Assembly: GCA_016194725.1 (NCBI GenBank)
Contig: JACQAW010000170.1
Span: 1-34,395, forward strand
Reading direction: 5' to 3'
DNA length: 34,395 nucleotides
Origin: Deltaproteobacteria bacterium
GTDB lineage: Bacteria > Bdellovibrionota > UBA1018 > UBA923
Shown: piece after piece, positions 4,584 to 34,381 of the stretch
How the letters are laid out: every line of letters begins with the position of its first letter
How positions within the stretch are numbered: position 1 is the stretch's first letter
Made by a program: the position numbers and the translations under genes
Notes under the pieces: generated by a model
Seen by the model: the letters and a program-made list of their open reading frames with translations, nothing else
Database searches by the model: none
Told to the model about the DNA's origin: nothing

Positions 4584-4619
4584 GGGCTGATTTGTCTCTC
4601 GGATGAGCCGGAATGTCTC
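4584..4619. promoter_or_regulatory. Tandem enhancer boxes (GAGACA-N3-TGTCTC type)
   Basis: GGGCTG-ATT-TGTCTC 4584-4598 and GAGCCG-GAA-TGTCTC 4605-4619. Confidence 0.7.
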
Positions 4620-4661
4620 GAGGCAAGGCCTTGGCTCCCTCGGAACAACCGAAAATGGCGA

Positions 4662-4678
4662 TTGGCACCGAATTTGAA
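4662..4678 (+). promoter_or_regulatory. sigma54-like promoter for hsp20-like gene
   Basis: TTGGCAC-CGAAT-TTGAA (-12 GA variant), 42 nt downstream of the proximal box. Confidence 0.6.
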
Positions 4679-4748
4679 AAGACAAGGAATAAGCACAAGA
4701 CGTCTTAGATTGCCCGATGTGCGCAACTAAATTTCAAGGAGAGAGAAG

Positions 4749-5135
4749 ATGAATCACCAATCCCAACTGCAAGCTGTAAATTCCGTGGTCTTGTTTCCAA
4801 CCCCTGAGTCACGGCTTGAAAAAAGGCCGTCGAAACTTTCCAGAATGCTTGACTTGAATCCCGCGCCACCGCACGCGTTGATGGAAAGCGAGTCTGCCTA
4901 TTCGATCGTGTTTAACATGCTCGGAATTGAGCAAAAGGGCATCGGAATCGACATCGATACCGGCAAGCGCGAGGTCACGGTGTTGGCACGGCGTGAGCGT
5001 GAGTTTTCTCGCAACGGGTTTTTTTGGACCTTTGGCGTTCCGGGTGACGCCCTGTTAGTGGAAATGACAGCCCGCTTCAAGGCCGGTGTTCTCGAAATTG
5101 TCATTCCGAGATCGCCGCAGTTCATTGTCGCGTGA
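4749..5135 (+). CDS. Hsp20/alpha-crystallin-like protein (divergent)
   Basis: ESESAYSIVFNMLGI...ARFKAGVLEIVIPR pattern; SD AAGGAG. Confidence 0.75.
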   Translation: MNHQSQLQAVNSVVLFPTPESRLEKRPSKLSRMLDLNPAPPHALMESESAYSIVFNMLGIEQKGIGIDIDTGKREVTVLARREREFSRNGFFWTFGVPGDALLVEMTARFKAGVLEIVIPRSPQFIVA

Positions 5136-5157
5136 ATCCAAAATCCCAAACTCAGAA

Positions 5158-6306
5158 TTAAGCGGAGCTTCTGGTTTTACGTTGCTTCGGCAGCCGCACG
5201 ACAAAGCGTGTATTGGGCGCGCTGGAATCGATGACGAGGCTTCCACCATGATTCTCGATGATTGCCGTGGAAACGCTCAAGCCAAGCCCCGAGCCCTCTC
5301 CCATATCCTTGGTCGTGAAAAAGGGTTGCATGATTTTTTCGCGCAGTTCTTTGGGTATGCCGCGGCCGCTGTCGGAAACAGCGATTTCGACGTTTTCCGG
5401 GCCGTCGAGAACTTCAATTTTGATCCATCGCTCGTCCAGCTGAAGAATCGCGTCTTTGGCGTTGTTGATGAGATTCACGAACACCTGGCTGATCTGGGTT
5501 TCCTGGCACAAGATCTCGACACTGGCATCGATCCCCGTGGTGTGGGTGGTGATTCCGTGTTTTTTGAAGCTTTCCCAGGTAAAACCCAGCACGTCGTTGA
5601 TCATGCGTGCGACTGACGTATTATGGAACGGGTCGTTGGTCCCATCGCGGGAAAGCGCGCGCATGCCGCGAATAATCGCAGCCATGCGATCGCAAAGGCT
5701 TTTGACCGTATCAAAAGTTTTGAGAAGGTCCGTATCAGAACGCTTGCCTGCCTGTATCTGCATTTCCTGGAATTCCACGCGACCGCGAATGGTCGCAAGG
5801 GGGTTGCCAAGCTCGTGAGCAATGCCCGCGGCGAGCTCGCCCACGCTTGCCATTTTCTCGGAATGAATGAGAGTCGCGCGATGCCGTTCGGCCAGCTCCT
5901 GAACAAGCTTCTGCTCGGTGATGTCGGTGCGAATCGCGACGTATTTGAAGGGGCGGCCCTTGGCGGTCATAAAAGGGACGATCGTAGTGAAAACCCAGTA
6001 GAAGCTGCCGTCTTTTGTGCGGTTTTTGACTTCGCCTTTCCACGTCTTGCCCGAAGAGATGGTGGTCCAAAGATCGACGAAGAATTCCTTGGGATGGTGG
6101 CCTGAGTTGATGATTCGGTGGTTTTGGCCGATCAGCTCCTCGCGGGAAAACTTCGAGATCTCGCAGAACTTGTCGTTGAGGTAGGTAATGGTCCCTGTGG
6201 CGTCGGTGAACGCGACGATCGAAGAGTGGTCCAGCGCGTGGCGCAGATCATCGACCTCTTTTTCAGTGCGCTCCAACTGCTCTTCAACGCTCAACCGATC
6301 GCTCAT
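5158..6306 (-). CDS. Soluble PAS-domain sensor histidine kinase (HK1)
   Basis: NifL/Aer-type PAS (IGQNHRIINSGHHP...WKGEVKNRTKDG), H-box AHELGNPL, N box NLINNAKDA, G boxes DSGRGI and GSGLGL; no TM segments; start ATG 6306 with SD GAGG. Confidence 0.92.
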   Translation of the reverse strand: MSDRLSVEEQLERTEKEVDDLRHALDHSSIVAFTDATGTITYLNDKFCEISKFSREELIGQNHRIINSGHHPKEFFVDLWTTISSGKTWKGEVKNRTKDGSFYWVFTTIVPFMTAKGRPFKYVAIRTDITEQKLVQELAERHRATLIHSEKMASVGELAAGIAHELGNPLATIRGRVEFQEMQIQAGKRSDTDLLKTFDTVKSLCDRMAAIIRGMRALSRDGTNDPFHNTSVARMINDVLGFTWESFKKHGITTHTTGIDASVEILCQETQISQVFVNLINNAKDAILQLDERWIKIEVLDGPENVEIAVSDSGRGIPKELREKIMQPFFTTKDMGEGSGLGLSVSTAIIENHGGSLVIDSSAPNTRFVVRLPKQRKTRSSA

Positions 6307-6318
6307 GCCATCCTCGAA

Positions 6319-6373
6319 GTGACAACGTGTCTCAAAGAATGGCACTATCAGGCCAAATTGGCTCAATAGTCAA
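6319..6373 (-). promoter_or_regulatory. Putative sigma70 promoter of HK1 overlapped by two operator boxes
   Basis: Minus strand TTGACT (6373-6368), 18 nt, GATAGT (6349-6344); boxes GAGCCA-ATT-TGGCCT (6364-6350) and GAGACA-CGT-TGTCAC (6333-6319). Confidence 0.55.
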
Positions 6374-6397
6374 GTGAGTGCCAACAGCCAGTCGCCT

Positions 6398-7675
6398 TTA
6401 CGGTCCCTTGCAATAGAGATCGCGCCAGGAGCGCTGGAGCTGATCGCGATCGGCAGGATGTGCGATCGAAAGGAGCGCTTTGGCTCGCTGAGCCAGGTTC
6501 TTTCCATAGAGATCGGCGACTCCATATTCGGTAATCACGTAGTGAACGTGCGCTCGCGTCGTCACCACGCCCGCGCCGAGCCTCAAGGTTGGAACAATTC
6601 GTGAGCTGCCTGATTTTGTACGGCTGGGTAGGGCGATAATGGGTTTACCACCCGGCGAAAGCGAGGCACCCCGCATGAAATCCATTTGCCCGCCTGCGCC
6701 AGAGATAATTCTAGTTCCGATGGAATCCGCGCAAACCTGCCCGGTAAGGTCGATCTCGACGGCCGAGTTGATAGCGACCACCTTGGGGTTACGAGCGATA
6801 TTGGCCGCGTCGTTGACGTAACCAATGTCAAGTTGCACTACCGAGGGGTTGTCATGGATGAAGTCATAAAGTTTTTTGGAACCCATGACAAAACCCGAGA
6901 CGGTTTTGCCGGGATGTACCTTTTTCAAGGAGTTATCGACCGCGCCGGAGCGGAGCAGCTCCAGGGCTCCATCGGACCACATCTCGGAGTGGATTCCCAG
7001 ATGACGCCGGTCTTTGAGCACGCCGAGCACGGCGTCCGGAATATTTCCGATTCCCATTTGCAAAGTTGAGCCGTCGTCGATGAGGCTGGCAACATGATGT
7101 GCTATGGCCTTCTCGATATCACCGGGCAGGGTGGCGATTTCCTCGGGAAGTGGGTCGTCGACCTCAATGGCGTGGTCGATGCGACTGATATGGATGAAGC
7201 CATCGCCGTGAACGCGAGGCATTCGGGGATTGATCTGGGCAATGACGACCTTTGCGACGTCGATTGCGGCACGTGCGATGTCCACGCTCGTTCCCAGGGT
7301 GCAGTAGCCGTGTTGATCGGGGGGAGAAACGTGAATGAGGGCGACATCCAAGGGGAACCGGCCGGAGCGAAAGAGCTGCGGGATTTCTGATAAAAAGCAG
7401 GGAATATAATCGACCTGTCCCGGGTTCAATTTTTGGCGAAGGTTGGCGCCAATGAAAAAGGCTGAGACCTTGAAGCTGTCGGCCACGGCGGGATCGGCGT
7501 ATTTTGACGTTCCGATGGTATGCAGGTGAACCAGCTCCACGTTCTTCAGGCGACCGGCTTGGGCTGCCAGCCCGTCCAGGAGACGCGTGGGAGTCGCCGC
7601 CGCGCCTTGCGCGAACACGCGTTGGTTGGATTGAATCGCGGCGATGGCATCTTCGGCTCTTAAATGTGTTTTCAT
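6398..7675 (-). CDS. Acetyl-CoA hydrolase/transferase family (4-hydroxybutyrate CoA-transferase-like)
   Basis: TLQMGIGNIPDAV, HLGIHSEM, GAGGQMDFMRGA, VITEYGVADL motifs. Confidence 0.93.
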   Translation of the reverse strand: MKTHLRAEDAIAAIQSNQRVFAQGAAATPTRLLDGLAAQAGRLKNVELVHLHTIGTSKYADPAVADSFKVSAFFIGANLRQKLNPGQVDYIPCFLSEIPQLFRSGRFPLDVALIHVSPPDQHGYCTLGTSVDIARAAIDVAKVVIAQINPRMPRVHGDGFIHISRIDHAIEVDDPLPEEIATLPGDIEKAIAHHVASLIDDGSTLQMGIGNIPDAVLGVLKDRRHLGIHSEMWSDGALELLRSGAVDNSLKKVHPGKTVSGFVMGSKKLYDFIHDNPSVVQLDIGYVNDAANIARNPKVVAINSAVEIDLTGQVCADSIGTRIISGAGGQMDFMRGASLSPGGKPIIALPSRTKSGSSRIVPTLRLGAGVVTTRAHVHYVITEYGVADLYGKNLAQRAKALLSIAHPADRDQLQRSWRDLYCKGP

Positions 7676-7689
7676 CGAAAGCTTAAGTT

Positions 7690-7706
7690 TGCAAGTTTGG
7701 TGCGCA
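7690..7706 (-). promoter_or_regulatory. sigma54-like promoter for CoA hydrolase/transferase
   Basis: TGCGCAC-CAAAC-TTGCA (-24 CG variant), 39 nt from box 7746. Confidence 0.5.
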
Positions 7707-7745
7707 CGCCGCGGGGGCGGCAGAAACCGGGATAAGATTCAAAAT

Positions 7746-7781
7746 GAGACAAAGCCTGCACCAGACGTGACAAGTTGTCTC
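7746..7781. promoter_or_regulatory. Tandem enhancer boxes
   Basis: GAGACA-AAG-CCTGCA 7746-7760 (half-site) and GTGACA-AGT-TGTCTC 7767-7781. Confidence 0.7.
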
Positions 7782-7821
7782 ACGGGCATTGGAAAAAAAT
7801 CCGTAACTTCCATGACTTCTG

Positions 7822-7838
7822 CTGGCATCAAGTTTGCT
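7822..7838 (+). promoter_or_regulatory. sigma54 promoter
   Basis: CTGGCAT-CAAGT-TTGCT, 40 nt from box. Confidence 0.75.
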
Positions 7839-7850
7839 CATTAGACCGGT

Positions 7851-8339
7851 ATGAACAAACAATCACCAGCACAGTATTTGAACTTGGGTAGCAAGGTCAC
7901 ATTTTACGTCGTCGCGAGTCGTACGGAAGCCGTGTTCTTTTCGGTGGGCGACGAACAGGCGTTTCGATTCGTTGAACGGCTCTCGGACGAAAAGGGTGCT
8001 CTTCACGAGAGCGAACTCGTTTCGGACAGACCGGGCAGAGGGCTGTCAAGCGCAGGTAATGGCGTCGTTCGTCATGCCGTTGGGCATGGGGAGACGCACC
8101 GCGAACAGCTTGCAAAGAAGTTTGCAGCTCGAATTGCGGCGGCGCTGGATACGGCGCGCGCGCAAAAGCGCTTTACTGAAGTCGTACTTGCAGCCGAGCC
8201 ACGCTTTCTCGGCCTATTGAGGGAGGCGCTTGGATTGGAAATTCGTGCTTTGGTGAAACATGAAATTCCCCGTGAGTACGTCAAGTGTTCAGATGGCGAG
8301 GTTCGCGCCCGTATTCTGAAGGCGATCGAGAAAGAGTGA
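7851..8339 (+). CDS. Host-attachment family protein (bacterial aeRF1-like, baeRF)
   Basis: YVVASRTEAVFF, ELVSDRPGR, KFAARIAAALD, VLAAEPRFLGLLR. Confidence 0.85.
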   Translation: MNKQSPAQYLNLGSKVTFYVVASRTEAVFFSVGDEQAFRFVERLSDEKGALHESELVSDRPGRGLSSAGNGVVRHAVGHGETHREQLAKKFAARIAAALDTARAQKRFTEVVLAAEPRFLGLLREALGLEIRALVKHEIPREYVKCSDGEVRARILKAIEKE

Positions 8340-8358
8340 TTTTTCCGGGTGCCTGAGA

Positions 8359-8955
8359 TCATTTACCCAGGTAAACCACGCAGCGAATCGCGATGCGGTC
8401 GTCGGATCTGAGTCCGCCCATCATGGCAGTGAGCGGTACCAGGCCAAATGTGGTCTGGGCGATCTGGATATTGGCCTCGTAGGTATTCGCCCCTGTCTTC
8501 TTGAAGCGAATGTACTGCTCCACTGCCCGGCCGTGTAACGTGAGCAAGCCCTTGGCAAGAATCGAACTGCCATCGCGCTGCACGGAAACATCATTGACCT
8601 GATATCGAATCCACGGAAAGTCATCGCCTTGAAGCAACTGAGAGCGAATCTTCTGTTTGATCCGGCTCTTGTCCGCCTCTGAAATGTCTGGAGAAACGAC
8701 CTCAAGCCCGTTCACGTCGATTTCAGCCTCGATGCGAGCGCCTGCCGGGCAGGATTCCTCGGGCGTGACAGTGACGACCAGCTGCTGCGCGAGAATAACT
8801 GGCGCTTTGGCCAGTTTCGCCAAGGGGCCGCTGTTGCTGGGATGAAGCTCAATATAGACCTGTCGCTCCGAGAAGCAGAGTTTCCGTCGCGGCAGATTAA
8901 GCGCGGTAAAGAAGTCACTTTCCATTGTGTTCTCTTCCAGTCGAATCGGCTTCAT
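8359..8955 (-). CDS. YceI-like (lipid/polyisoprenoid-binding fold) protein
   Basis: LLQGDDFPWIRY, AKGLLTLHG, QTTFGLVPLTAMMGGLRSDD; start ATG 8955 after SD AAGGAG; no signal peptide. Confidence 0.72.
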   Translation of the reverse strand: MKPIRLEENTMESDFFTALNLPRRKLCFSERQVYIELHPSNSGPLAKLAKAPVILAQQLVVTVTPEESCPAGARIEAEIDVNGLEVVSPDISEADKSRIKQKIRSQLLQGDDFPWIRYQVNDVSVQRDGSSILAKGLLTLHGRAVEQYIRFKKTGANTYEANIQIAQTTFGLVPLTAMMGGLRSDDRIAIRCVVYLGK

Positions 8956-9009
8956 GCTTACTCCTTTGAGTGTTGAATCCACACGGGACATTCCGCTTGT
9001 CTGACTATT

Positions 9010-9026
9010 AGCAGGCTCCGTGCCAT
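9010..9026 (-). promoter_or_regulatory. sigma54 promoter for YceI-like gene
   Basis: ATGGCAC-GGAGC-CTGCT, 40 nt from box 9067. Confidence 0.72.
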
Positions 9027-9066
9027 GCCGGCCAGTGGCTGGAAATCGGGCTACGAGGTCCAATGT

Positions 9067-9103
9067 GGGACAGATTGGCTCAAGCCGTGCGCGCTGTTGT
9101 CTC
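9067..9103. promoter_or_regulatory. Tandem enhancer boxes
   Basis: GGGACA-GAT-TGGCTC 9067-9081 and GCGCGC-TGT-TGTCTC 9089-9103. Confidence 0.7.
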
Positions 9104-9142
9104 GTGCAACCCTGAAATCAAGTTATTTCAGTGGGATCTCCC

Positions 9143-9159
9143 CTGGAACGCCAGTTGCA
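9143..9159 (+). promoter_or_regulatory. sigma54 promoter
   Basis: CTGGAAC-GCCAG-TTGCA, 39 nt from box. Confidence 0.7.
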
Positions 9160-9203
9160 ATTTCATTGGCTGACGGCAAGGTCGTCAGCGACGAGGTGAA
9201 GCC

Positions 9204-9410
9204 ATGAGGGCATTTTGGCCGATTTTCATCATTCTTGGAGTGGCCAGCCGAATGCAAAGAGGACTAAACCCAAAGTTCTATCGGGCCGTTCTGGACGACC
9301 GCGCGCAGAATGTCGGTGCTTGTCAGGATTCCGATGATTCGGTGCTCGGAATCCACGATGGGAATGGCGTGAATCCTATTGGCAAGCATAGCTGCGCGCC
9401 CTGCCGTTGA
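9204..9410 (+). other. Small ORF or 5' remnant of an exported-protein gene
   Basis: Own sigma54 promoter, SD GAGGTG and signal-like start MRAFWPIFIILGVAS, but after about 20 codons it runs antisense through the CBS fragment. Confidence 0.4.
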
Positions 9411-9429
9411 TGGAGTAAAGAAGCGGCAT
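9264..9429 (-). pseudogene. CBS-domain gene with large internal deletion/frameshift
   Basis: ATG 9429 gives MPLLYSINGR; the other frame gives the last CBS half MLANRIHAIPIVDSEHRIIGILTSTDILRAVVQNGPIELWV; the first CBS domain is missing. Confidence 0.65.
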
Positions 9430-9441
9430 CTGACGAATTCC

Positions 9442-9951
9442 CTAAAAAATAAATCCATCCATGCGATGGCCCGCGTTCTCGAGAATTCCCTGAAGAGTCC
9501 AGCGTGCGGGCGTCTTGGGATCTCCCAAGAGGTCGATGAGAACTTTCATCAGATCGTCCGTCGTGACGATGCCTACGGTTGCACGGCCATTTGTTACCAA
9601 GAGGGCCGATACCTTTTCCTGGAGCAAGCGCTCGGCAACCAATCGGATGTCCGAATCCTGCTCGATGGTCAGAACCGGCCAGCCCATGTAGTCGCGAACT
9701 CTCGCTTCGGGATCGAATTCGATGCTTTCCGATGAAGCCGGGCTCGGTGGCTCATGCTTGATCTCGGAAATCATGGCCCGCTGTACGTCGCGGTCGGAAA
9801 GCATCCCTACGATTTCACCGGTATCGTCGCATACCGGAAGATGCCTGAGTTTCCGCTTTCGCATGCGTTTGCACGCGGTTTCCATATTCTCATTGAAGTT
9901 TATCGTGACCAGTTTCTTGCTCATGCTTTCGCGCGCCAGTTTCTTTGTCAT
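9442..9951 (-). CDS. CBS-domain pair protein
   Basis: MRKRKLRHLPVCD...VGMLSDRDV; VGIVTTDDLM; start ATG 9951 with SD GGAGAGG. Confidence 0.9.
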   Translation of the reverse strand: MTKKLARESMSKKLVTINFNENMETACKRMRKRKLRHLPVCDDTGEIVGMLSDRDVQRAMISEIKHEPPSPASSESIEFDPEARVRDYMGWPVLTIEQDSDIRLVAERLLQEKVSALLVTNGRATVGIVTTDDLMKVLIDLLGDPKTPARWTLQGILENAGHRMDGFIF

Positions 9952-9980: not shown

Positions 9981-9997
9981 CGCAAGATGGATGCCAT
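9981..9997 (-). promoter_or_regulatory. sigma54 promoter for CBS genes
   Basis: ATGGCAT-CCATC-TTGCG, 39 nt from box 10037. Confidence 0.75.
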
Positions 9998-10036: not shown

Positions 10037-10073
10037 GGGCCGTTTCGTCTCAGCGGCAGCGACTTTGGGGCAC
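10037..10073. promoter_or_regulatory. Tandem enhancer boxes
   Basis: GGGCCG-TTT-CGTCTC 10037-10051 and degenerate GCGACT-TTG-GGGCAC 10059-10073. Confidence 0.55.
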
Positions 10074-10081: not shown

Positions 10082-10852
10082 TTATAACTTGCGATATACG
10101 TCAAGGACGCGATTAACCGCTTTACCGCTCATGGCGCGTACGTGGACAAGGTACGGTCCTGCCTTGAGCTGGCCAAGCCTGATTTCGTATCGAAATTCAG
10201 TTCGCTCGTGGCGGCACGGCTGGCTTCGGTCGCGTTCGACAATGGGCATGACGACAAAAACATCATTCTGCCTCTCCAGGCGTACCGGCTCTTGCAGATG
10301 CTCGCACGAGAAGTAGAGTGTCCCCTGGATGATAATCTTGATCGACTCGTCATCGAGCAGGATCTTATCCGAAAGAACATCGCTCACCGAGGCGTAGGGG
10401 TAGTCATCGATATCCGCGGTTTCCGCGGCCGCCACGCCGAAGTCGCGAGTTCCGATATTTTTAGTTTCCTGGTCGCGCAGGAATTCGATTTTGTACTTTC
10501 CGGCGTCCAGCTGCCCAAGCGAGACTTCCGTCTCATAGGGGCTCGTCAAATCAGGATCGAGGTCCCCGTTTCCGCAGATGCCTGTTGTTCTCAGCCACGC
10601 ATATTGATGAACGCGCAGGGTAGGACCTTTCTTTTCTATCTTGGTTTCGCCCAAGGTATAGCAGATATGCGGTAGCTCCCCTTTGACCACCATGACAATA
10701 TGGTCATTGTCGTCATATCCGTGCGCCGGTACGAACACGGCACTGACATTGACTTCCGTCGCCGCATCTTGTGCCAGTGCTTTGGTTGAAGAAAAAGACA
10801 GTGCGGTACTTAGAATCCCAAAGCTCAGTGCGATCCATACTTTCTTATTCAT
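10082..10852 (-). CDS. Exported two-repeat beta-sandwich-like hypothetical protein (GYDDND motif)
   Basis: Signal peptide from ATG 10852 (SD GGGGGA); two internal repeats each with a Cys pair; paralog of 12220-12954. Confidence 0.8.
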   Translation of the reverse strand: MNKKVWIALSFGILSTALSFSSTKALAQDAATEVNVSAVFVPAHGYDDNDHIVMVVKGELPHICYTLGETKIEKKGPTLRVHQYAWLRTTGICGNGDLDPDLTSPYETEVSLGQLDAGKYKIEFLRDQETKNIGTRDFGVAAAETADIDDYPYASVSDVLSDKILLDDESIKIIIQGTLYFSCEHLQEPVRLERQNDVFVVMPIVERDRSQPCRHERTEFRYEIRLGQLKAGPYLVHVRAMSGKAVNRVLDVYRKL

Positions 10853-10877: not shown

Positions 10878-10894
10878 AGCAATCGATGTGCCAA
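10878..10894 (-). promoter_or_regulatory. sigma54 promoter
   Basis: TTGGCAC-ATCGA-TTGCT (consensus), 42 nt from box 10937. Confidence 0.8.
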
Positions 10895-10936
10895 ACGCAG
10901 TTCCAGCGGCGGTTCGGGTTAGAGAAAATTCTCCAT

Positions 10937-10973
10937 GAGACGGAATAGCTCGTGCCGAGGTTCGATTTGTCCC
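10937..10973. promoter_or_regulatory. Tandem enhancer boxes
   Basis: GAGACG-GAA-TAGCTC 10937-10951 and GGTTCG-ATT-TGTCCC 10959-10973. Confidence 0.65.
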
Positions 10974-11014
10974 GAAAAGGCGGCGCGGTTCTCTTGCTGC
11001 GGCCGGGAAATTTC

Positions 11015-11031
11015 CTGGAATACCTATTGCA
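11015..11031 (+). promoter_or_regulatory. sigma54 promoter
   Basis: CTGGAAT-ACCTA-TTGCA, 41 nt from box. Confidence 0.7.
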
Positions 11032-12080: not shown

Positions 12081-12116
12081 GAGACAAAAAATCTCCACGA
12101 AGACTCAATTCTTCTC
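12081..12116. promoter_or_regulatory. Tandem enhancer boxes
   Basis: GAGACA-AAA-AATCTC 12081-12095 and GACTCA-ATT-CTTCTC 12102-12116. Confidence 0.6.
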
Positions 12117-12157: not shown

Positions 12158-12174
12158 TTGGCACGTCGGCTGCA
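12158..12174 (+). promoter_or_regulatory. sigma54 promoter
   Basis: TTGGCAC-GTCGG-CTGCA, 41 nt from box. Confidence 0.75.
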
Positions 12175-12219: not shown

Positions 12220-12954
12220 ATGAATAAAGTTTTGGTGAACTTGGCTATTTTGTTTTCTGTCGTAATCATTTCAGCAAAGGCTGCGACGGCTCAGGATTTT
12301 AAGCCAGTGCTTCTTGTTCAGGAGCCGGAGCATGTGTTTACCCCGATGGGTTTTGACGACAACGATAACGTGCAGATGGTTCTCCATGGCTACTTGTCTG
12401 ATACCTGCCACAAAACGGGTCCTGTCTATACGCGGGTCGACAAAGAGCACAAGACGATCTACGTCCGCAATACGGTGTACTTCTATTCCGGCTGTTGGTG
12501 TGCGGCTGTACTTACGCCTTATCTTCAAACCCTGAATCTGGGACTGCTGGGCGTCGGAAGCTACGATGTTGTCGTGGAGAAGCCGGACGGCACGTTTCAA
12601 AAAATGGCAGCGCTCCCTGTCGCGGTCGCCAAAACACCAAGTCCAGACGATTACCTCTATGCGCCCGTCGATCACCTGCACTTCACCCAACGCCAGGCCC
12701 CGCAGTCGTCTGAGATCACTTTGAGTGGCGTATTCAGAAACAGCTGCATGACGTTGAAAGACGTAAAAGTAACCTATCGACCCAATCATGTCGTCGAAGT
12801 CCAACCCATCGCGGAAATGGACACGACCAATTGCACGATTGACGCCAAGCCCTTCGAAGCAACCGTCAAAATCAATCCTGCCTATCGCGGAACAGCTTTG
12901 ATTCACGTTCGGTCCCTGAACGGCCAGTCCTTGAATCAGGTCGTCGACCTGTAA
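12220..12954 (+). CDS. Exported two-repeat hypothetical protein (GFDDND motif)
   Basis: Signal peptide from ATG 12220 (SD GGGGGA); VFTPMGFDDNDN, DDYLYAPV, LIHVRSLNGQSLN align with 10082-10852. Confidence 0.8.
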   Translation: MNKVLVNLAILFSVVIISAKAATAQDFKPVLLVQEPEHVFTPMGFDDNDNVQMVLHGYLSDTCHKTGPVYTRVDKEHKTIYVRNTVYFYSGCWCAAVLTPYLQTLNLGLLGVGSYDVVVEKPDGTFQKMAALPVAVAKTPSPDDYLYAPVDHLHFTQRQAPQSSEITLSGVFRNSCMTLKDVKVTYRPNHVVEVQPIAEMDTTNCTIDAKPFEATVKINPAYRGTALIHVRSLNGQSLNQVVDL

Positions 12955-25978: not shown

Positions 25979-25995
25979 TACAAGTTGCGTGCCGA
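25979..25995 (-). promoter_or_regulatory. sigma54-like promoter for ldhA
   Basis: TCGGCAC-GCAAC-TTGTA (-12 GT variant), 31 nt from box 26027. Confidence 0.55.
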
Positions 25996-26103: not shown

Positions 26104-26120
26104 CTGGCCCGCTGGTTGCA
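26104..26120 (+). promoter_or_regulatory. sigma54 promoter
   Basis: CTGGCCC-GCTGG-TTGCA, 41 nt from box. Confidence 0.72.
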
Positions 26121-27515: not shown

Positions 27516-27526
27516 AAGGAGATGTC

Positions 27527-27907
27527 ATGGCTTCATATGTGATTTGGATGGATTCGAAAGAAGGAAAAGTATTTGATCTTTTGCCGGAAGGAACAAAAGT
27601 CAGGCACCTGCATACGCATGGCCACAAATACAAGCCACAGCCTGGCGGTGACCACAATGAGGCGCATCAGCACGGTCTTGATGGATTTTTCAAGCAGCTC
27701 GCCGATTCCATCAAAGATGCCAAAGAAGTGATCGTTCTTGGGCCGTCCGAGGCGAAAGTGCATTTCAAAAGCTATCTTGAAAAGCACTTCGCCCATACTC
27801 TTGCCAAAAAGATTGTGGCAGTTGAAACCGTTGATCACCCAAGCGACAATCAGATTCTTGCGCAGGCTCGAAAGTTCTTCAAGGCCTACGATGCGTTCCA
27901 GCAGTAG
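27527..27907 (+). CDS. Small aeRF1-domain-like (baeRF) protein
   Basis: VIWMDSKEGKVF...FFKQLADSIKDAKEVIVLGPSEAK...VETVDHPSDNQILAQARKFF; SD AAGGAG. Confidence 0.82.
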   Translation: MASYVIWMDSKEGKVFDLLPEGTKVRHLHTHGHKYKPQPGGDHNEAHQHGLDGFFKQLADSIKDAKEVIVLGPSEAKVHFKSYLEKHFAHTLAKKIVAVETVDHPSDNQILAQARKFFKAYDAFQQ

Positions 27908-28721
27908 CCCCCCGGTAAGGCACATCCTATGGAGTGTTTCTCCAAGGACTGAAATCGACGTGCTATTGCGCTCGATATCGGCGCTAGGGGCCTTCGCACG
28001 CGCGCATGAGGCCGTGATTCAGCCGGTTTTTGTGCATAACCTGAATGAAGGTGGAATCGATGAGGCTGAACGCGAGTTTGGAAAGGCGATAGGTAGATTC
28101 AGTGAGCCGCTTTTCATAAGGCCCAAGGTCATTTCTTGCGCCGGCTCGTCAGTGAACGGCGCCGTCGATGCTCTTTGCGATTACGCTGCGTTGTCCGCTA
28201 GCGACGTTATCGGTGTCAGCACCCACGCGCGGGCTGGCCTCTCGCGAATGGTGCTTGGCAGTTTTGCAGAAACTTTGATTCTGAGATCCAAAGTGCCGGT
28301 TCTTGTGGTGAATCCTCACGATCTCTGGCGGGAAGAGCGGGTGGGGCGAATTCTTGTGGCTAGCGACCTTGATGCGGAGTCCTTTGGCTTCTTCAAGCGC
28401 GTGGCTTCGGTTGCCAGTCGAATGGAGTCCTCACTGCTCATTTATTCAAAAACCGACAAAGCCCAACATCTTGCACGAGCTAAAGTGGCGGGATTATGGG
28501 CTCAGGAGGTGGCGCAGGCTTTTGGAGTCGCTGCTGAAATTATGATTGAGACGGGCAGTGAAGAAGTTTCTTCCGCCATTATCCGGCACGCTTCAGTGTC
28601 CAAGTGCGGCATGATTGCGCTTCAGACCCGATCGGGGGCGTTGAAAGCTGCCTTGCACGGTAGCATCGCGCGCGCCCTGGCCCGCTCGGCACCGTGCCCC
28701 TTATGGATTGAGCGAGCCTGA
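27891..28721 (+). CDS. Tandem universal stress protein
   Basis: DVIGVSTHARAGLSRMVLGSFAETLI; ILVASDL; LHGSIARALARSAPCP; likely start ATG 27891. Confidence 0.87.
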   Translation: MRSSSSPPVRHILWSVSPRTEIDVLLRSISALGAFARAHEAVIQPVFVHNLNEGGIDEAEREFGKAIGRFSEPLFIRPKVISCAGSSVNGAVDALCDYAALSASDVIGVSTHARAGLSRMVLGSFAETLILRSKVPVLVVNPHDLWREERVGRILVASDLDAESFGFFKRVASVASRMESSLLIYSKTDKAQHLARAKVAGLWAQEVAQAFGVAAEIMIETGSEEVSSAIIRHASVSKCGMIALQTRSGALKAALHGSIARALARSAPCPLWIERA

Positions 28722-28724: not shown

Positions 28725-29726
28725 TTAATTCGTTTTTATTTTGTGGATAGCGACCTTCGAGTGAAGCTTGCGTATGAGTGCGTAATGGCCGAGCGAAGTC
28801 CCTTCTGTTGCAGCCGTGGCAGCACCGGCGGCAATACCCCAGCGGAAAACGTCCGAGAGCTGTTTCGGTGTCGCCTGCTCGATGTCCTCTGGCCGGGCCA
28901 GCTTCCAGGATGCGAGCCTCGCTGCTATCGCTCCAACCATCGAATCACCAGCCCCCACTGTTCCCCTGGCCTTGATTCGCGGGGCCCGCGCCATCCAAGT
29001 TTCTTGATTCACGCAGAAAAGCGCCCCTCGATCTGCCAGCGATACGCACACGATCGCCGCCCTTCGAGACAGCTGGTGCGCGGCGGCGGCGATTGCCGAG
29101 ATGGAACGAAGGTTTTTCCCAATCAGCGTTTCAAGCTCTGTCTGATTCGGTTTGATCAGAAGAATTCTGGCTGACGGTGACCGGATAATGGCCTTGAGAG
29201 CAGGTGCTGGAACATCAACGACGACCCCGAGCCCTTGTTTCGACACCGAATCGATGAGGTCGATGTAAAAGCGCGGTGAACAGCCGGCCGGAAGGCTGCC
29301 GCCAATGAGTACGATGCCCGGAGCTCGGAATTTGGATATCGCGGATAGGAGCAAGCGAATTTCCTGCCGGCTGATGTGGGGGCCCGGGAAGGTCAAACGT
29401 GTCTGCTTGTGGTCATGGTCGTTCGTGACGGTGACATTGGTGCGGGTGGTTCCTCGAATTTTCGTGAACTGTTCCTCAAGCCCCTCGCTCTTCAAAAGCG
29501 CCTGAAGCTGTGAGCCTGTGCCGCCACCCAGAAAGCCGAGTAGCATGGGGCGGCCACCCAGCCTTTTTGCAATACGGGCCGCGTTGATCGCATTGCCGCC
29601 GGGATCGAGCCGTGCTCGTTCCACGTAGTTCTTCTCGTCGGCGACAATTCGGTTCACGTGTCCTGACAGGTCAAGCGCTGGGTTTGGGGTTATGGCGTAG
29701 ATTCTCGTTTGTCCTTCTCTGTTCAT
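28725..29726 (-). CDS. pfkB: PfkB/1-phosphofructokinase family sugar kinase
   Basis: ITPNPALD, PGGNAINAAR, TRTNVT, GGSLP, KPNQTEL, TVGAGDSMV. Confidence 0.88.
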   Translation of the reverse strand: MNREGQTRIYAITPNPALDLSGHVNRIVADEKNYVERARLDPGGNAINAARIAKRLGGRPMLLGFLGGGTGSQLQALLKSEGLEEQFTKIRGTTRTNVTVTNDHDHKQTRLTFPGPHISRQEIRLLLSAISKFRAPGIVLIGGSLPAGCSPRFYIDLIDSVSKQGLGVVVDVPAPALKAIIRSPSARILLIKPNQTELETLIGKNLRSISAIAAAAHQLSRRAAIVCVSLADRGALFCVNQETWMARAPRIKARGTVGAGDSMVGAIAARLASWKLARPEDIEQATPKQLSDVFRWGIAAGAATAATEGTSLGHYALIRKLHSKVAIHKIKTN

Positions 29727-29739: not shown

Positions 29740-29756
29740 TGCATTCCAGATGCCAA
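29740..29756 (-). promoter_or_regulatory. sigma54 promoter for pfkB
   Basis: TTGGCAT-CTGGA-ATGCA, 29 nt from box 29786. Confidence 0.68.
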
Positions 29757-29785: not shown

Positions 29786-29822
29786 GGGACACCAAGTGTC
29801 GTTTCGTGAGCAAATTTGTCTC
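29786..29822. promoter_or_regulatory. Tandem enhancer boxes
   Basis: GGGACA-CCA-AGTGTC 29786-29800 (half-site) and GAGCAA-ATT-TGTCTC 29808-29822. Confidence 0.68.
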
Positions 29823-29862: not shown

Positions 29863-29879
29863 TTGGCACGCTCGCTGCA
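29863..29879 (+). promoter_or_regulatory. sigma54 promoter
   Basis: TTGGCAC-GCTCG-CTGCA, 40 nt from box. Confidence 0.75.
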
Positions 29880-29930: not shown

Positions 29931-30461
29931 ATGAACAATCTGACAACGAAGAATTTTTGGAATCCATGGGCCGATGAGTCGGCGACTTTTCAGCGTGCCG
30001 TCGAGCGCTTGTTTGGCGACTCGATGTTATCGTTAAAGGCGAATGCGAAGATGCCAACGTTCAATCCCATGTGCGATGTCGAGGAGTCGGACGGGCACTA
30101 CCTGTTCAGCTTCGATGTGCCAGGTATCGGCAAAGACGATATCAAGGTGGAGCTTCTCGAAAACCAACTTGTGGTGTCCGGTGAACGGAAGTACGAGCAT
30201 TCTGAAAAGAAACATGCCCATCGCCTCAATGAGCGCTACTACGGCAGCTTTCAAAGGGCGTTCACGCTTCCCTCGGTCATTGATGCCGAGCGCGTCGAAG
30301 CTTCCTACGACAACGGCGTCCTTCGAATCGCCATTCCCAAAGCCGAAACCACGAGAAATCGGACGGTCAAGATAGGCGAAGGGAAAAGCGGATTTTTCGC
30401 CAAGATCCTGAGCCGGGGCGAAGGCGACAAGACGGAAACCGGAAAAAAGTTATCAGCATGA
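29931..30461 (+). CDS. Hsp20/alpha-crystallin small heat-shock protein
   Basis: DVPGIGKDDI, ERYYGSFQRAFTLP, ASYDNGVLRIAIPK; SD AGGAGG before ATG 29931. Confidence 0.93.
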   Translation: MNNLTTKNFWNPWADESATFQRAVERLFGDSMLSLKANAKMPTFNPMCDVEESDGHYLFSFDVPGIGKDDIKVELLENQLVVSGERKYEHSEKKHAHRLNERYYGSFQRAFTLPSVIDAERVEASYDNGVLRIAIPKAETTRNRTVKIGEGKSGFFAKILSRGEGDKTETGKKLSA

Positions 30462-30489
30462 GCGGGCATTGCCCTTCAAAGGAGATCAC

Positions 30490-30903
30490 ATGAAAGCAAT
30501 GCCAAGAATTCAAAAAGTCATGACCGCGATGCCGCACACCATTGGAAGCGACATTCCGATCAAAAAGGCGATGGAAATGATGCGGGAGTTCCGCATTCGC
30601 CATCTGCCGGTTCAGAGGGCCGGGCAGCTCATCGGTGTCTTGAGCGATCGAGACATCAAACTTGCCCGCTCATTTCAAGGGCCAGGCGAGCTGACCGTCG
30701 ATGACGTAATGACCCCCGATCCCTACGTCGTTGCTCCAGACGCCTCGCTGGACGAAGTCGCGTTCAATATGGCCGAACACAAATACGGCTGCGCTATCGT
30801 CCGGCAGTCCAACGGAAAGGTCGTTGGTATTTTCACGGACAACGACGCCCTCAGAAGTTTAGGTGAGACGCTCCGCAGCCACTACAAGACCGTGGCGGCT
30901 TGA
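30490..30903 (+). CDS. CBS-domain pair protein
   Basis: IRHLPV...GVLSDRDI; VDDVMT; VVGIFTDNDAL; SD AAGGAG. Confidence 0.9.
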   Translation: MKAMPRIQKVMTAMPHTIGSDIPIKKAMEMMREFRIRHLPVQRAGQLIGVLSDRDIKLARSFQGPGELTVDDVMTPDPYVVAPDASLDEVAFNMAEHKYGCAIVRQSNGKVVGIFTDNDALRSLGETLRSHYKTVAA

Positions 30904-30990
30904 CCAGCGCAAAGAGAACCGCAGGGCGCACCGCCACGATGGTTATCGTGGAGGACGTCTTGCGGTTCAGTTTTGATGGAAGGCCAGGAT

Positions 30991-31440
30991 ATGAACACTT
31001 TAGCGGCAAAGACAGGTGATCAAGCAGGACAAAAAGAGACAAAGACCGTCAATTTGTCCCATGGGTTGACCAAGGGGCGGCTTCTGGTGATCGACGACGA
31101 TGTTGGGATGCGGTCTCTTTTGAACGATGTGTTGTGCACCTCGGGCTACACCGTGACGAGCTTTTCGGACGCGATCGGAGCGTTGAAAATCGTTACGGCC
31201 AACGATCAGAATATTGACGCCATAATTTGCGATCTGAATATGCCCAGAATCAGCGGATTTGATTTCCTGGACATGCTGCAAAGGATGAAATCGAAGATAC
31301 CTCTGATACTCATTACCGCATTTGGAACGAAGAAGACCGAGCAGGAAGCGCAGAAAAAAGGCGCATTTGGCTACCTCTCAAAACCGTTCCAGCTTTCGGA
31401 AATCAGCGAGCTGATTCAAAAGGCAGTGAATCCGCTCTGA
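30991..31440 (+). CDS. Single-domain response regulator (receiver)
   Basis: LVIDDD, ICDLNMP, ITAFG, KPF; no output domain. Confidence 0.9.
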   Translation: MNTLAAKTGDQAGQKETKTVNLSHGLTKGRLLVIDDDVGMRSLLNDVLCTSGYTVTSFSDAIGALKIVTANDQNIDAIICDLNMPRISGFDFLDMLQRMKSKIPLILITAFGTKKTEQEAQKKGAFGYLSKPFQLSEISELIQKAVNPL

Positions 31441-32238: not shown

Positions 32239-32255
32239 TGCAACCACTGGGCCAA
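32239..32255 (-). promoter_or_regulatory. sigma54 promoter
   Basis: TTGGCCC-AGTGG-TTGCA, 41 nt from box 32297. Confidence 0.72.
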
Positions 32256-32296
32256 GCTGAAATGAGGGTGGGGTTTGGGGTGGACCAGTTGATCAC

Positions 32297-32342
32297 GAGC
32301 AAAAAAGACTCGTTTCCGCTGTGGGGCGAGACATTGTGTCTC
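32297..32342. promoter_or_regulatory. Enhancer boxes including the perfect palindrome
   Basis: GAGCAA-AAA-AGACTC 32297-32311 and GAGACA-TTG-TGTCTC 32328-32342. Confidence 0.75.
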
Positions 32343-32381
32343 AAGAGGTGCTTTGCAAGTGCCTGAATACGCTGCGAAATA

Positions 32382-32398
32382 TTGGCATGAGCGCTGCA
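32382..32398 (+). promoter_or_regulatory. sigma54 promoter
   Basis: TTGGCAT-GAGCG-CTGCA, 39 nt from box. Confidence 0.75.
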
Positions 32399-32425
32399 GT
32401 ACCTAACTCTGAAAAGGGGAAGATC

Positions 32426-33583
32426 ATGAGCCGATACTCGCTTAGCGTATTTCTAGGACTGGCGGTTTTGAGTTTACTGACGTCGCTGCGCGCTGCGCGC
32501 GCCCAGGACGCGCCTGACGTCAAGGCGACGATGAACAGGAATTTCAACGCCTTGATGAATCTGCAATCGTTCGCGGCCGACCCCAAGGTGTTCGCGGATC
32601 CCAAAAATAGAGACGAAATCGAAAAGAATCTCGAAGCGATGTCGGGCCTCACGCATATCTTCCCGCAAAAGTTAGCAGGACAGGAGCCCGGCCTTGCAGC
32701 CATCTCGAGCCTGTTCTCGGATTACCTGAAAGAGGTGCAGAGGTCTTTCAAGAGTGGCGCGAACGGATCTTTTGTCAGAAACCAGGTCAGAACCATGATG
32801 GGCCTGTGCATGAGTTGCCATACTCGCGTGAGCACGAATCAGAGTTTTACCGATCTGAAAGACAAAGTCGACTCCACGCCGCTTACCGACTTTCAAAGAG
32901 CGGAATTTTATGCCGCCACCAGGCAATTCGACCGGGCGATCAAGGCTTTCGACGTGATCATTTCTGAAACCCCGAGCGGTGAGTTCGGCTATCTGGAGCT
33001 GGGTCGATCCGTGCGCGAAGCTTTAAGCATCACGATTCGGGTCAAGCAAGACCCCAAGGCCACCTTTTATATCCTCGAAAAACTCGCAACCCGGGATGAC
33101 CTGCCGGAGTTTTTTCAGCGCTATGTCGCGGAGTGGAAAAAAGACGTGACGAAATGGATGGGCGAAAAGAAGCGCCCCAAAGACATGACGGCAACAGAGC
33201 TGATGAACAAGGCGGATGCTTTGGTGGACCAGGCTACGAAGCGACAGCTGTTCCCGGTTGATCCGTCTGGCGACGTGAACTACCTGCGCGCCACCAACTA
33301 CATTCACGAGGCTCTGACAAAGGACCCCAAAGGCAAGTTTCGGGGCGAGGCGCTGTACCTTCTTGGCAGCTGTTACGACACCTTGCAAGACCCGATGCTT
33401 TGGGCGCTCGACAGCCTGTATTTCGAAGCCTGCGTGCGGGAGTTCCCGCACTCCGCGGTATCCAGGAAATGCTACCATCGTTACGCCGCGAAGCTTTACT
33501 TCGGCTACAGCGGCAGCGGTGGAACTTTCATTCCCGAAGACGAGATCAAAAAACTAACCGAGCTGCGAAAGCTCACTCAGTAG
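32426..33583 (+). CDS. Exported mono-heme c-type cytochrome (helical bundle) with TPR-like C-terminal region
   Basis: Signal peptide ending ARA; CMSCH after about 100 helical residues; TPR-like EALYLLGSCY; start ATG 32426. Confidence 0.75.
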   Translation: MSRYSLSVFLGLAVLSLLTSLRAARAQDAPDVKATMNRNFNALMNLQSFAADPKVFADPKNRDEIEKNLEAMSGLTHIFPQKLAGQEPGLAAISSLFSDYLKEVQRSFKSGANGSFVRNQVRTMMGLCMSCHTRVSTNQSFTDLKDKVDSTPLTDFQRAEFYAATRQFDRAIKAFDVIISETPSGEFGYLELGRSVREALSITIRVKQDPKATFYILEKLATRDDLPEFFQRYVAEWKKDVTKWMGEKKRPKDMTATELMNKADALVDQATKRQLFPVDPSGDVNYLRATNYIHEALTKDPKGKFRGEALYLLGSCYDTLQDPMLWALDSLYFEACVREFPHSAVSRKCYHRYAAKLYFGYSGSGGTFIPEDEIKKLTELRKLTQ

Positions 33584-33592
33584 AGGTATAGC

Positions 33593-34381
33593 ATGAAGTC
33601 ATTTCAAAAAATTATCTGGGCCGCTGATCCGTTGGAAGACAAAGAGCTTCGAAGCCAAAGCATTCATGTGCTTCGAGACCTCTCGAAAAGGACTGGAGCG
33701 CGAATTGAGCCGGTCTACGTTTTGAGCGATGGTCTTCTGAGCCTCTCGGTGCCGAAGTCGGAGCTATTGAGAGAGTTCAAGCCCGCTTCGGAGCGAGCGC
33801 TGAAAAATCTGGCAAAACAATCCAGGGTCTCGAAGCTCGAACCATCGACGGTGCTGGTTTCGGCTCCCTCTTCGCGGGGCAGCGCCGCCGAAGCACTGGA
33901 TCGCTATGCCCGGAGTAAAAATGCTGATCTCATTCTTGTGAACTCGCATGGTCGCCACGGCGTCAAGCGTGCGGTCATGGGAAGCTTCGCGGAGACGCTC
34001 ACGCTCCACGCCAGGACTCCGGTATTGATCACGGGCCCAAAGACGCAGGCGGTCTCGAAGCTCGATCACATCCTTTTCCCGACGGATTTTTCGCTGGCAT
34101 CAAGAAAAGCGTTCGTGAAAGTGCAGGAACTGGCGGAAAAGCTCGGCGCACGGATCACGATTTTTTACGTGGTCTTGAATCCGATCGAGCCGTTCGTGCA
34201 GTCGGGTGCGGCGCTTCTTGGAGGCGGTTTCGTAACTACCCGGGGTTACGTGAAGCAGGTCTACGATCGCCAGAAAAAACTGGCCGCACACTGGGCTGCC
34301 GAGGCTCAGAATAAGGGCCTGGAAGCGGATAGCGCCTTTGACGTTGATAGCTGCAGCGTAATTTTGTCGATTCTCGAATAA
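33593..34381 (+). CDS. Tandem universal stress protein, 3'-truncated at window end
   Basis: DLILVNSHGRHGVKRAVMGSFAETL, ILFPTDFS; second domain lacks its final motif; the TAA is formed by the terminal A-run. Confidence 0.87.
   Translation: MKSFQKIIWAADPLEDKELRSQSIHVLRDLSKRTGARIEPVYVLSDGLLSLSVPKSELLREFKPASERALKNLAKQSRVSKLEPSTVLVSAPSSRGSAAEALDRYARSKNADLILVNSHGRHGVKRAVMGSFAETLTLHARTPVLITGPKTQAVSKLDHILFPTDFSLASRKAFVKVQELAEKLGARITIFYVVLNPIEPFVQSGAALLGGGFVTTRGYVKQVYDRQKKLAAHWAAEAQNKGLEADSAFDVDSCSVILSILE

Follow-up and report, generated by a model that had tools for sequence, protein, structure and literature searches.

A 30-kb cluster of sigma-54-like promoters with one shared palindrome and its own activator in a Bdellovibrionota genome: a candidate regulon for survival at low oxygen or low energy

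The closest described counterpart of the locus treated here is the NmpR regulon of Myxococcus xanthus. In the part of the report available to us (PMC11841059), NmpR is an NtrC-like activator that acts at sigma-54 promoters through paired GCGCA-N5-TGCGC sites, with a regulon of 7 promoters and 23 genes that includes a CBS protein heading the nmpR operon, a universal stress protein (USP), a P-type ATPase together with a cbb3 oxidase, hemN with a hemerythrin gene, and nmpUTS; a protoglobin kinase is placed at the top of the NmpRSTU pathway, and hypoxic induction was demonstrated for one member of the regulon. The same source cites FixLJ-FixK and FNR as systems that raise the high-affinity cbb3 oxidase as oxygen falls, and the accessible text of PMC7753917 names pfkB, hrp1 (Rv2626c), Rv2629 and ctpF as genes related to DosR of mycobacteria. 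We analyzed a window of 34,395 nucleotides (nt), which is the whole of contig JACQAW010000170.1 of the Bdellovibrionota assembly GCA_016194725.1 and in which positions 4584–34381 hold a cluster of genes behind sigma-54-like promoters, together with an NtrC-type activator, that is, a bacterial enhancer-binding protein (bEBP), and two PAS histidine kinases, HK1 and HK2. Members of the Bdellovibrionota, predatory and free-living, are treated as aerobes, and to our knowledge little is known about how they survive in oxygen-poor groundwater, sediment or biofilm.

The window (C141 in our numbering of contigs) belongs to a 3.97-Mb assembly of 491 contigs that is 72.6% complete. The sequencing runs containing its sequence are groundwater metagenomes from a single study, with no RNA run among them. 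The public-genome loci nearest to it are from metagenome-assembled genomes (MAGs) labeled Bdellovibrionota, Bdellovibrionales, Oligoflexia or Bacteriovoracaceae, which bears out the lineage assumed in the initial annotation. The cluster comprises 17 transcription units, 19 sigma-54-like -24/-12 elements and about 35 genes in about 30 kb, and since the contig ends only 14 nt past the last gene, coding for a USP (33593–34381), it may extend further. The initial annotation had stated that nearly every unit opens at a sigma-54-like element and is associated with one shared palindrome, and that the cluster also encodes a bEBP, two PAS kinases and a receiver. Our analysis agrees and places the pattern well beyond chance, with one element more than the 18 counted then, with exact GG-N10-GC in 14 of the 19 as in the former count, and with a bEBP that Pfam finds split in two frames. 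We consider it very probable that the cluster is under the shared control of sigma-54 and one activator. The reading that we favor for the region as a whole, with a probability of roughly 0.6, is that of a supra-operonic sigma-54 regulon with its own activator, serving a survival program for low oxygen or for a low energy or redox state.

The case for the promoters is made by comparing the window with the remainder of its own genome. With GG and GC fixed and at most one mismatch to TGGCAC-N5-TTGC, 12 sites were found in the 34.4 kb of the window versus 314 in the other 3.94 Mb, a 4.4-fold excess; when a ribosome site and an open reading frame (ORF) within 160 nt downstream were also required, the counts were 11 and 128, a 9.9-fold excess. 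A lack of such enrichment had been named in the initial annotation as the result that would speak against it. When up to two mismatches were allowed, the excess dropped to 1.3-fold for bare sites and to 3.0-fold for sites with a ribosome site and ORF. By site density at this looser setting the window contig ranks second among the 128 contigs of at least 10 kb, and the denser one, C392 (13.8 kb, in the same assembly, G000), carries nine loose sigma-54-like sites with an ORF downstream. The gene for sigma-54 is present, as a PF04552 match of 217 bits in a 509-aa open frame on contig C231.

The palindrome common to the regions upstream of the promoters is GAGACA-N3-TGTCTC, of 15 bp. One perfect copy lies in the window and none in the rest of the genome; the corresponding numbers are 5 versus 1 with up to one mismatch, 11 versus 34 with up to two and 25 versus 703 with up to three. 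The window holds 14 promoters with a palindrome 30–110 nt upstream, and the other 3.94 Mb hold 13 (7 there in a reversed-sequence control); the scoring matrix was trained on window sites, which tells against the window figure and makes the count outside the window the more conservative one. Most control regions hold two palindrome units, the outer halves of which are best preserved, and the divergent promoter pairs 7691/7823, 9011/9144, 10879/11016, 21650/21784, 29741/29864 and 32240/32383 have their palindromes in common. Measured from the palindrome centre to the T of TGGCAC, the 14 distances are 48–51 nt in seven cases, 60 nt in two, 70–72 nt in three and 81–82 nt in two. Their mean resultant length is 0.89 at a period of 11 bp, which was picked after the data were seen, and none of 200,000 random draws reaches that value when the maximum over four periods is taken, a figure to be discounted to the extent that distances from divergent pairs with common palindromes are not mutually independent. 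For the loci of relatives the same measure is 0.60, a value that 1,443 of 200,000 draws attain.

Two leaders have the inverse layout. In that of the activator, the -12 element of the activator's own promoter is followed by a palindrome with its centre 77 nt downstream, and in that of HK1 a weak promoter-like element is followed by palindromes at about 12 and 43 nt. These positions indicate putative feedback sites, whether positive or negative in sign. Plausible members of the regulon outside the window were found on contigs C117, C89 and C384. On C117 (locus L104 of G000) a divergent sigma-54 pair at about 7660–9670 is arranged around palindromes GGGACAAGTTGGCTC and CCTTTGTCCC, with a small ORF and two CBS-pair proteins behind, and another palindrome, at 4032, adjoins an Hsp20-like fragment.

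An ortholog-grade match to the activator (E of at most 1e-110) is present in 51 of 201 sampled Bdellovibrionota genomes, or 48 of the 166 of high quality, and is distributed patchily by family (for example, in 10 of 13, 15 of 32 and 0 of 35 genomes). Synteny within the phylum, another check proposed for the cluster at the outset, is upheld, as the activator keeps a neighborhood of cco genes, CBS, USP, kinases, acetyl-CoA hydrolase, beta-CASP and Hsp20 across at least six families. Subsets of the cluster lie near activator orthologs in eight genomes (G008, G019, G027, G017, G029, G030, G007 and G013), and the recurring ones include the cco genes, CBS144, the 385-aa protein, USPs, HK1, HK2, AAA_28, acetyl-CoA hydrolase, beta-CASP and Hsp20. 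The activator's own leader has a sigma-54 site followed by the palindrome in four of eight related genomes scanned, at a spacing of 78, 78 and 76 nt in G008, G017 and G007 and of 56 nt in G013. In G017, G030, G007 and G013, which represent four families, the CBS144 and USP orthologs are divergently arranged, and sigma-54 sites and palindromes accompany the pair. Taken together, 22 loci around activator orthologs (428,139 bases, some of the loci overlapping each other) hold 16 promoter-plus-palindrome combinations versus 1 in reversed controls. Same-genus genomes carry rearranged pieces of the cluster at 68–74% DNA identity. The promoter TGGAACGCCAGTTGC at 9144–9158 is letter-identical to one upstream of the CBS144 ortholog of G007 (L022, 12595–12609), and since it faces only a 68-aa ORF in the window, this is a hint of rearrangement.

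The domains found by Pfam in the activator are a receiver, a Sigma54_activat AAA+ domain and HTH_8, and the search of the cluster proteins gave no other DNA-binding regulator. Its orthologs in the relatives are intact, with lengths of 476–549 aa. Both kinases consist of PAS, HisKA and HATPase domains, and neither has a globin or a FixL-type heme PAS domain; matches of HK1 and HK2 labeled FixL proved to be engineered LOV-FixL chimeras and were rejected as indicators of such a domain. The PAS domain of HK1 matches 3ewk_A with an E of 1.3e-35 and also matches the PAS domains of NifL and Aer. The 3EWK structure is the PAS domain of Methylococcus MmoS that binds flavin adenine dinucleotide (FAD), with pocket residues T103, H132, N164 and R195 according to the available part of PMC9668731. 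In the alignment to 3ewk_A, HK1 has the identical T, H, N and R at all four positions of this pocket.

Several of the promoters lie unusually close to the genes that they serve. At textbook sigma-54 promoters transcription starts about 11 nt past the C of the -12 element. The distance from that C to the ATG is 15 nt for acetyl-CoA hydrolase, 13 nt for baeRF12, 15 nt for ccoI, 14 nt for the 2-hydroxyacid dehydrogenase, 13 nt for beta-CASP and 14 nt for PfkB, and no Shine-Dalgarno sequence is found at these six starts, several of which are pinned by Pfam domain boundaries. The predicted 5' untranslated regions are thus only 2–4 nt long and the mRNAs would be leaderless; HK2 may be a seventh case. 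In G008 the 14-nt spacing of the dehydrogenase is kept, and that of ccoI is 16 nt. Outside the window, 170 of the 314 sigma-54-like sites have the start of a long ORF within 120 nt, and 32 of these 170 starts fall at 12–16 nt, versus 6 of 94 for the reversed pattern and 1 of 34 for the scrambled pattern. This peak suggests that leaderless sigma-54 transcripts occur beyond the cluster and may be a habit of the organism as a whole. The portion of PMC3616915 available to us is silent on leaderless transcripts specific to sigma-54.

We infer the palindrome-binding protein, the routes of phosphotransfer, the signal and the physiological outcome as follows. Sigma-54 RNA polymerase would sit at the approximately 19 -24/-12 promoters, and the NtrC-type activator of the cluster would bind the 15-bp palindrome and activate them. 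The units usually come in pairs one to three helical turns apart on the same face of the helix, the nearer one centred some 49 nt upstream of TGGCAC (around -75), and a single pair would often serve two divergent promoters. HK1 and HK2, as cytoplasmic PAS kinases, may phosphorylate the receiver domain of the activator, HK1 with its MmoS/Aer-type FAD pocket reporting cellular redox state; the lone receiver encoded in the cluster could be a branch or a sink, and the palindromes downstream of the activator and HK1 promoters could provide feedback. Once switched on, the regulon would supply more of the high-affinity cbb3 oxidase and the factors for its assembly, of enzymes diverting carbon and reductant into other routes (2-hydroxyacid dehydrogenase, acetyl-CoA hydrolase/transferase and PfkB), of nucleotide-binding stress proteins (USP and CBS), of chaperones (Hsp20), and of RNA or translation factors (beta-CASP and baeRF). 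The predicted trigger would include hypoxia. The NmpR regulon, as far as the available text of PMC11841059 describes it, shares the core genes and has one hypoxia-induced member. A role in dormancy is speculation.

A more far-reaching proposal is that one activator drives the approximately 19 promoters from enhancers on one face of the helix (at about -75, -86, -97 or -108) and that the organism has a dedicated expression mode for stress or dormancy in which leaderless translation is coupled to sigma-54 transcription, a Bdellovibrionota program that would have arisen independently of DosR and NmpR. Part of it is the observation that about one third of the cluster promoters, and roughly a fifth of the strong sigma-54-like sites across the genome, place the ATG 2–5 nt past the predicted transcription start; the proposal as a whole we advance tentatively and hold to be doubtful.

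A number of observations weigh against the favored reading of a low-oxygen or low-energy sigma-54 regulon. Loose motif counts in the window are scarcely above those of shuffled sequence and discriminate poorly, with 118 matches to TGG-N10-GC versus 90.4±9.8 (1 of 100 shuffles as high) and 53 matches to TGGCAC-N5-TTGC at up to two mismatches versus 38.3±5.6 (2 of 100 shuffles as high), and it is because these are weak evidence that the comparison with the rest of the genome was used instead. Five of the 19 elements lack the canonical GG or GC (4663, ending in GA; 6369; 7691, with GC at -24; 21784, ending in TC; and 25980, ending in GT), and two of these, 6369 and 7691, are weak. At the thresholds used, 16 of the 22 related loci are without a promoter-plus-palindrome combination; palindromes with up to one mismatch are no more frequent in several distant relatives than in the reversed controls (6 versus 11 in G017, 6 versus 9 in G014 and 2 versus 7 in G030); and in two same-genus genomes, 72% and 90% complete, the best match to the activator is only 59–61% identical. 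HK2 keeps only T and N of the FAD-pocket residues, with P and A at the other two positions. Finally, the activator gene is broken as assembled, its receiver part and its AAA+ part being read in different frames. Relative to the 86%-identical ortholog of G008, the gene lacks about 112 bp of the linker between these domains near 24453/24454, and its Walker A motif is situated between the two ORFs, without an in-frame start codon. Were this a real, frameshifting deletion, the regulon could not be switched on and the island would be a decaying, silent remnant, an outcome that we find improbable. The remaining genes are all intact, and promoter and operator sequences are well preserved. The junction is bridged by no contig in two runs of the same study, where contigs approaching it from either side break off precisely at 24453/24454; those on the receiver side carry 29 extra letters that do not match the window, and the depth at the junction is about 3–4.5. 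The break is therefore probably an assembly fault rather than a true deletion, as judged from contigs compared across the junction, which are unable to show rare variants or transcript ends.

The same interruption bears on the identity of the protein that recognizes the palindrome. Another regulator, for example a repressor encoded elsewhere, might use it while other bEBPs act on the promoters, for the genome has 22 matches to the AAA+ query, the activator of the cluster is out of frame as assembled, and a palindrome downstream of the promoter, as in two of the leaders, is in a repressor-like position. The near-fixed position at which the palindrome accompanies the activator ortholog in half of the related genomes scanned, its helically phased enhancer distances upstream of the remaining promoters and the absence of a further DNA-binding regulator from the Pfam matches of the cluster make this very unlikely. 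The nature of the signal leaves more latitude. Flavin-type PAS domains indicate redox or energy state rather than direct binding of oxygen, so that the kinases would sense redox state and not oxygen as such, which also counts against the low-oxygen part of the favored reading. The same machinery could then respond to general limitation of energy or nutrients, to stationary phase or to a stage of the life cycle (non-growing attack or resting cells), with oxygen as one input. Sensors of the MmoS/Aer/NifL type report redox state, two kinases with a separate receiver suggest more than one input, USP and CBS proteins bind nucleotides, and many members of the cluster are envelope proteins without known function; yet no unit is larger than that of the cbb3 oxidase and its assembly genes, and the nearest characterized regulon, that of NmpR, is hypoxia-responsive in the available account (PMC11841059). 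We give this broader signal limited credence, as a possible alternative to a program centered on low oxygen or low energy.

The genes and control regions of the cluster are listed in Table 1. Gene families were assigned by Pfam, and unexplained ORFs were rechecked with NCBIfam and with Pfam at relaxed thresholds.

Table 1. Genes and control regions of the cluster (positions in the window; plus and minus refer to the strand shown)
Feature	Positions	Strand	Remarks
Promoter starts, plus strand	4663, 7823, 9144, 11016, 12159, 21784 (or overlapping 21773), 26105, 29864, 32383	+	
Promoter starts, minus strand	6369, 7691, 9011, 9982, 10879, 21650, 24931, 25980, 29741, 32240	-	
Two palindrome units	4584–4598, 4605–4619		upstream of 4663 promoter
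Sigma-54-like promoter TGGCACCGAATTTGA	4663–4677	+	-12 is GA; ribosome site and ATG 71 nt downstream; serves Hsp20-like gene
Hsp20-like protein, 128 aa	4749–5135	+	weak Pfam match, 20.0 bits vs cut-off 20.8
PAS histidine kinase HK1	5158–6306	-	PAS of FAD type as in MmoS, Aer
Weak sigma-54-like element	6369–6383	-	palindromes 6350–6364 and 6319–6333 downstream, in HK1 leader
Acetyl-CoA hydrolase/transferase	6398–7675	-	Pfam
Divergent control region	7691–7837		promoters 7691–7705 (-, GC for GG) and 7823–7837 (+)
Palindrome of 7691/7823 region	7767–7781		plus half-site near 7739
baeRF_family12 / Host_attach protein	7851–8339	+	Pfam
YceI-like protein, 198 aa	8359–8955	-	
Divergent control region	9011–9158		promoters 9011–9025 (-) and 9144–9158 (+); palindrome 9067–9081; distances 49 and 70 nt
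68-aa candidate ORF, function unassigned	9204–9410	+	behind 9144 promoter
CBS-pair protein, 169 aa	9442–9951	-	own promoter 9982–9996 (-), palindrome 10037–10051
256-aa protein, no family	10082–10852	-	
Divergent control region	10879–11030		10879–10893 (-), perfect TGGCAC-N5-TTGC; palindrome 10937–10951; 11016–11030 (+)
Two proteins without family, 158 and 163 aa	11065–12041	+	
Palindrome and promoter	12081–12095, 12159–12173	+	ahead of 244-aa protein without family, 12220–12954
cbb3 unit, 8.4 kb	13220–21634	-	one long transcription unit, ccoI first
ccoI (P-type ATPase)	19217–21634	-	
ccoS	19056–19220	-	54-aa CcoS-like ORF; 4-nt overlap with each neighbor
ccoN-ccoO fusion	16804–19059	-	COX1 and FixO in single 751-aa ORF
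ccoP	16248–16814	-	FixP_N/Cytochrome_CBB3
ccoG	14829–16244	-	FixG-type Fer4
DsbD_2 protein; PLD-like protein	14102–14848; 13220–14098	-	end of cbb3 unit
Divergent control region	21650–21798		promoter 21650–21664 (-); palindromes 21706–21720, 21739–21753
HK2 promoter candidates, overlapping	21773–21787, 21784–21798	+	
PAS histidine kinase HK2	21812–23559, including next gene	+	start 21812 or 21821
AAA_28 protein	22936–23559	+	after HK2
NtrC-type bEBP	23510–24834	-	receiver 24433–24834; AAA+/HTH_8 23510–24370, different frames
Activator promoter and palindrome	24931–24945, 24847–24861	-	palindrome downstream, in leader
D-2-hydroxyacid dehydrogenase	24961–25965	-	promoter 25980–25994 (CGGCAC..TTGT)
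Palindromes and promoter	26027–26041, 26048–26062; 26105–26119	+	promoter on plus strand; beta-CASP ATG at 26133
beta-CASP metallo-hydrolase unit	26133–28721	+	then 126-aa protein (27527–27907), tandem USP (27891–28721)
PfkB-family sugar kinase	28725–29726	-	promoter 29741–29755 (-)
Palindromes and promoter	29786–29800, 29808–29822; 29864–29878	+	promoter on plus strand
Hsp20 (176 aa), CBS-pair protein, single-domain receiver	29931–31440	+	one unit; CBS-pair protein 30469–30903, receiver 30973–31440
Two proteins without family, 123 and 133 aa	31441–32210	-	behind promoter 32240–32254 (-)
Divergent control region	32240–32397		perfect palindrome GAGACATTGTGTCTC 32328–32342; promoter 32383–32397 (+)
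385-aa protein, then tandem USP	32426–34381	+	weak TPR matches; USP 33593–34381

The oxidase genes ccoN, ccoO and ccoP and the assembly genes ccoG, ccoI and ccoS were all found, where the 54-aa ORF is presumably CcoS, going by its sequence pattern. The C-terminal tail of the ccoN-ccoO fusion contains an additional hydrophobic segment. For the ORFs of 256, 158, 163, 244, 123, 133, 68 and 126 aa, no family was found with NCBIfam or Pfam at relaxed thresholds; in the protein atlas the 126-aa ORF fell in clusters of hypothetical proteins only, and its BLASTP comparison with baeRF12 gave an E of 0.16. A minus-strand ORF at 27533–27925 with a putative site at 27951 was rejected in favor of the plus-strand 126-aa gene and USP.

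Outside the cluster, the first 185 bp of the window form an element whose termini are inverted repeats of 31 nt, with a nested pair of 17 nt. Copies of the element at 96–99% identity occur at full length on C254 and C227, and others lie at the ends of C188 and C212. The element resembles a repeat of the miniature inverted-repeat transposable element type that breaks the assembly. Two long plus-strand candidate ORFs (519 and 364 aa) in 1817–4685 are overlapped by minus-strand candidates of similar length (433 and 400 aa), and no Pfam match was obtained for any of the four. The GC fraction of 2001–4000 is 0.59, with an AT skew of 0.18. Rfam at gathering thresholds gave no match anywhere in the window.

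The value of the cluster is that it presents a concrete circuit open to experiment, consisting of sensor kinases, one activator, a defined operator, about 19 promoters and about 35 genes, and that the activator of this circuit is present in roughly one in four of the phylum's sampled genomes. The dense and phased arrangement of enhancers and promoters offers a compact natural model for enhancer geometry, and the predicted leaderless transcripts a model for the coupling of sigma-54 transcription to translation. Our literature searches found no description of a comparable regulon in Bdellovibrionota, which is not proof of absence.

The DosR regulon of mycobacteria was the comparison drawn in the initial annotation, which saw here a convergent DosR-like island. 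The overlap of gene families stands, with Hsp20, several USPs, PfkB, a CBS protein and a P-type ATPase identified by Pfam, and many members of the DosR regulon, which includes an eRF1-like protein, are also clustered; as a precedent, however, DosR is the weaker comparison. DosR is a response regulator of the NarL/LuxR type that works at sigma-70-class promoters through Dev boxes and receives its signal from heme-GAF kinases, whereas the present locus has sigma-54, an AAA+ activator and flavin-type PAS kinases, with the cbb3 oxidase at its center. Pfam detected neither a DosR-like regulator of the NarL/LuxR type nor a GAF kinase in the window.

The nif systems of Klebsiella and Azotobacter provide an earlier example of clustered sigma-54 operons with upstream activator sites, their own bEBP and a redox sensor, NifL, with an FAD-binding PAS domain of known structure (2GJ3). 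NifL works as an anti-activator rather than a kinase, NifA carries a GAF domain in place of a receiver, the nif operator reads TGT-N10-ACA, and the output is nitrogenase, which is turned off by oxygen. The FixLJ-FixK and FNR systems, as far as the available text of PMC11841059 presents them, differ in using sigma-70 promoters and activators of the CRP/FNR type, with no sigma-54 or AAA+ activator.

The NmpR regulon is a much closer precedent than DosR, and the kind of system is thus not new. To the extent that the accessible text of PMC11841059 describes it, NmpRSTU shares with the present locus an NtrC-type activator with sigma-54 promoters, paired inverted repeats upstream as operator and autoregulated signaling genes (both predicted in the present locus), a set of two kinases, a receiver-only protein and an activator, and a core of CBS protein, USP and a P-type ATPase leading the cbb3 operon. 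Going by the same text, the two systems differ in the operator (GAGACA-N3-TGTCTC here, GCGCA-N5-TGCGC in M. xanthus), in the sensors (flavin-type PAS kinases here, a protoglobin heme kinase and a receiver-HisKA hybrid there) and in organization (about 19 promoters and 35 genes in one 30-kb block here, 7 promoters and 23 genes dispersed there). Hsp20, PfkB, baeRF, beta-CASP and the dehydrogenase are additions of the present locus, in the window of which no hemN or hemerythrin gene was seen.

In a quick maximum-likelihood tree of 46 AAA+/HTH segments, the window activator lies in a Bdellovibrionota clade of 17 (91 in the Shimodaira-Hasegawa-like approximate likelihood-ratio test) as sister to its own paralog on C59, and a Myxococcaceae protein adjoining nmpSTU-like genes, which we call NmpR-like from gene order and a perfect GCGCA-N5-TGCGC site, lies in a different clade; the deep branches are weakly supported. 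The window activator thus does not group with the NmpR-like protein and would not, on this tree, be its ortholog. Four Myxococcota loci (L049, L060, L058 and L051) have no comparable neighborhood. In a Myxococcota MAG (G033, L110/L111, C1:1495001–1530000), genes for a protoglobin kinase, an NtrC-type activator, CBS, USP and cbb3 adjoin one another, the activator being the best match of that genome to ours (58% identical), with sigma-54-like promoters nearby. This gene set points to a theme of greater age or wider distribution than either model system. In Myxococcota and Bdellovibrionota, two sister lineages, the same core genes (CBS, USP and ccoI-cbb3) are tied to sigma-54 activators with different operators and sensors. 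Systems of this kind are already known, and what is distinctive about the present cluster is its density of promoters, the strict helical phasing of their palindromes and the predicted leaderless sigma-54 transcripts.

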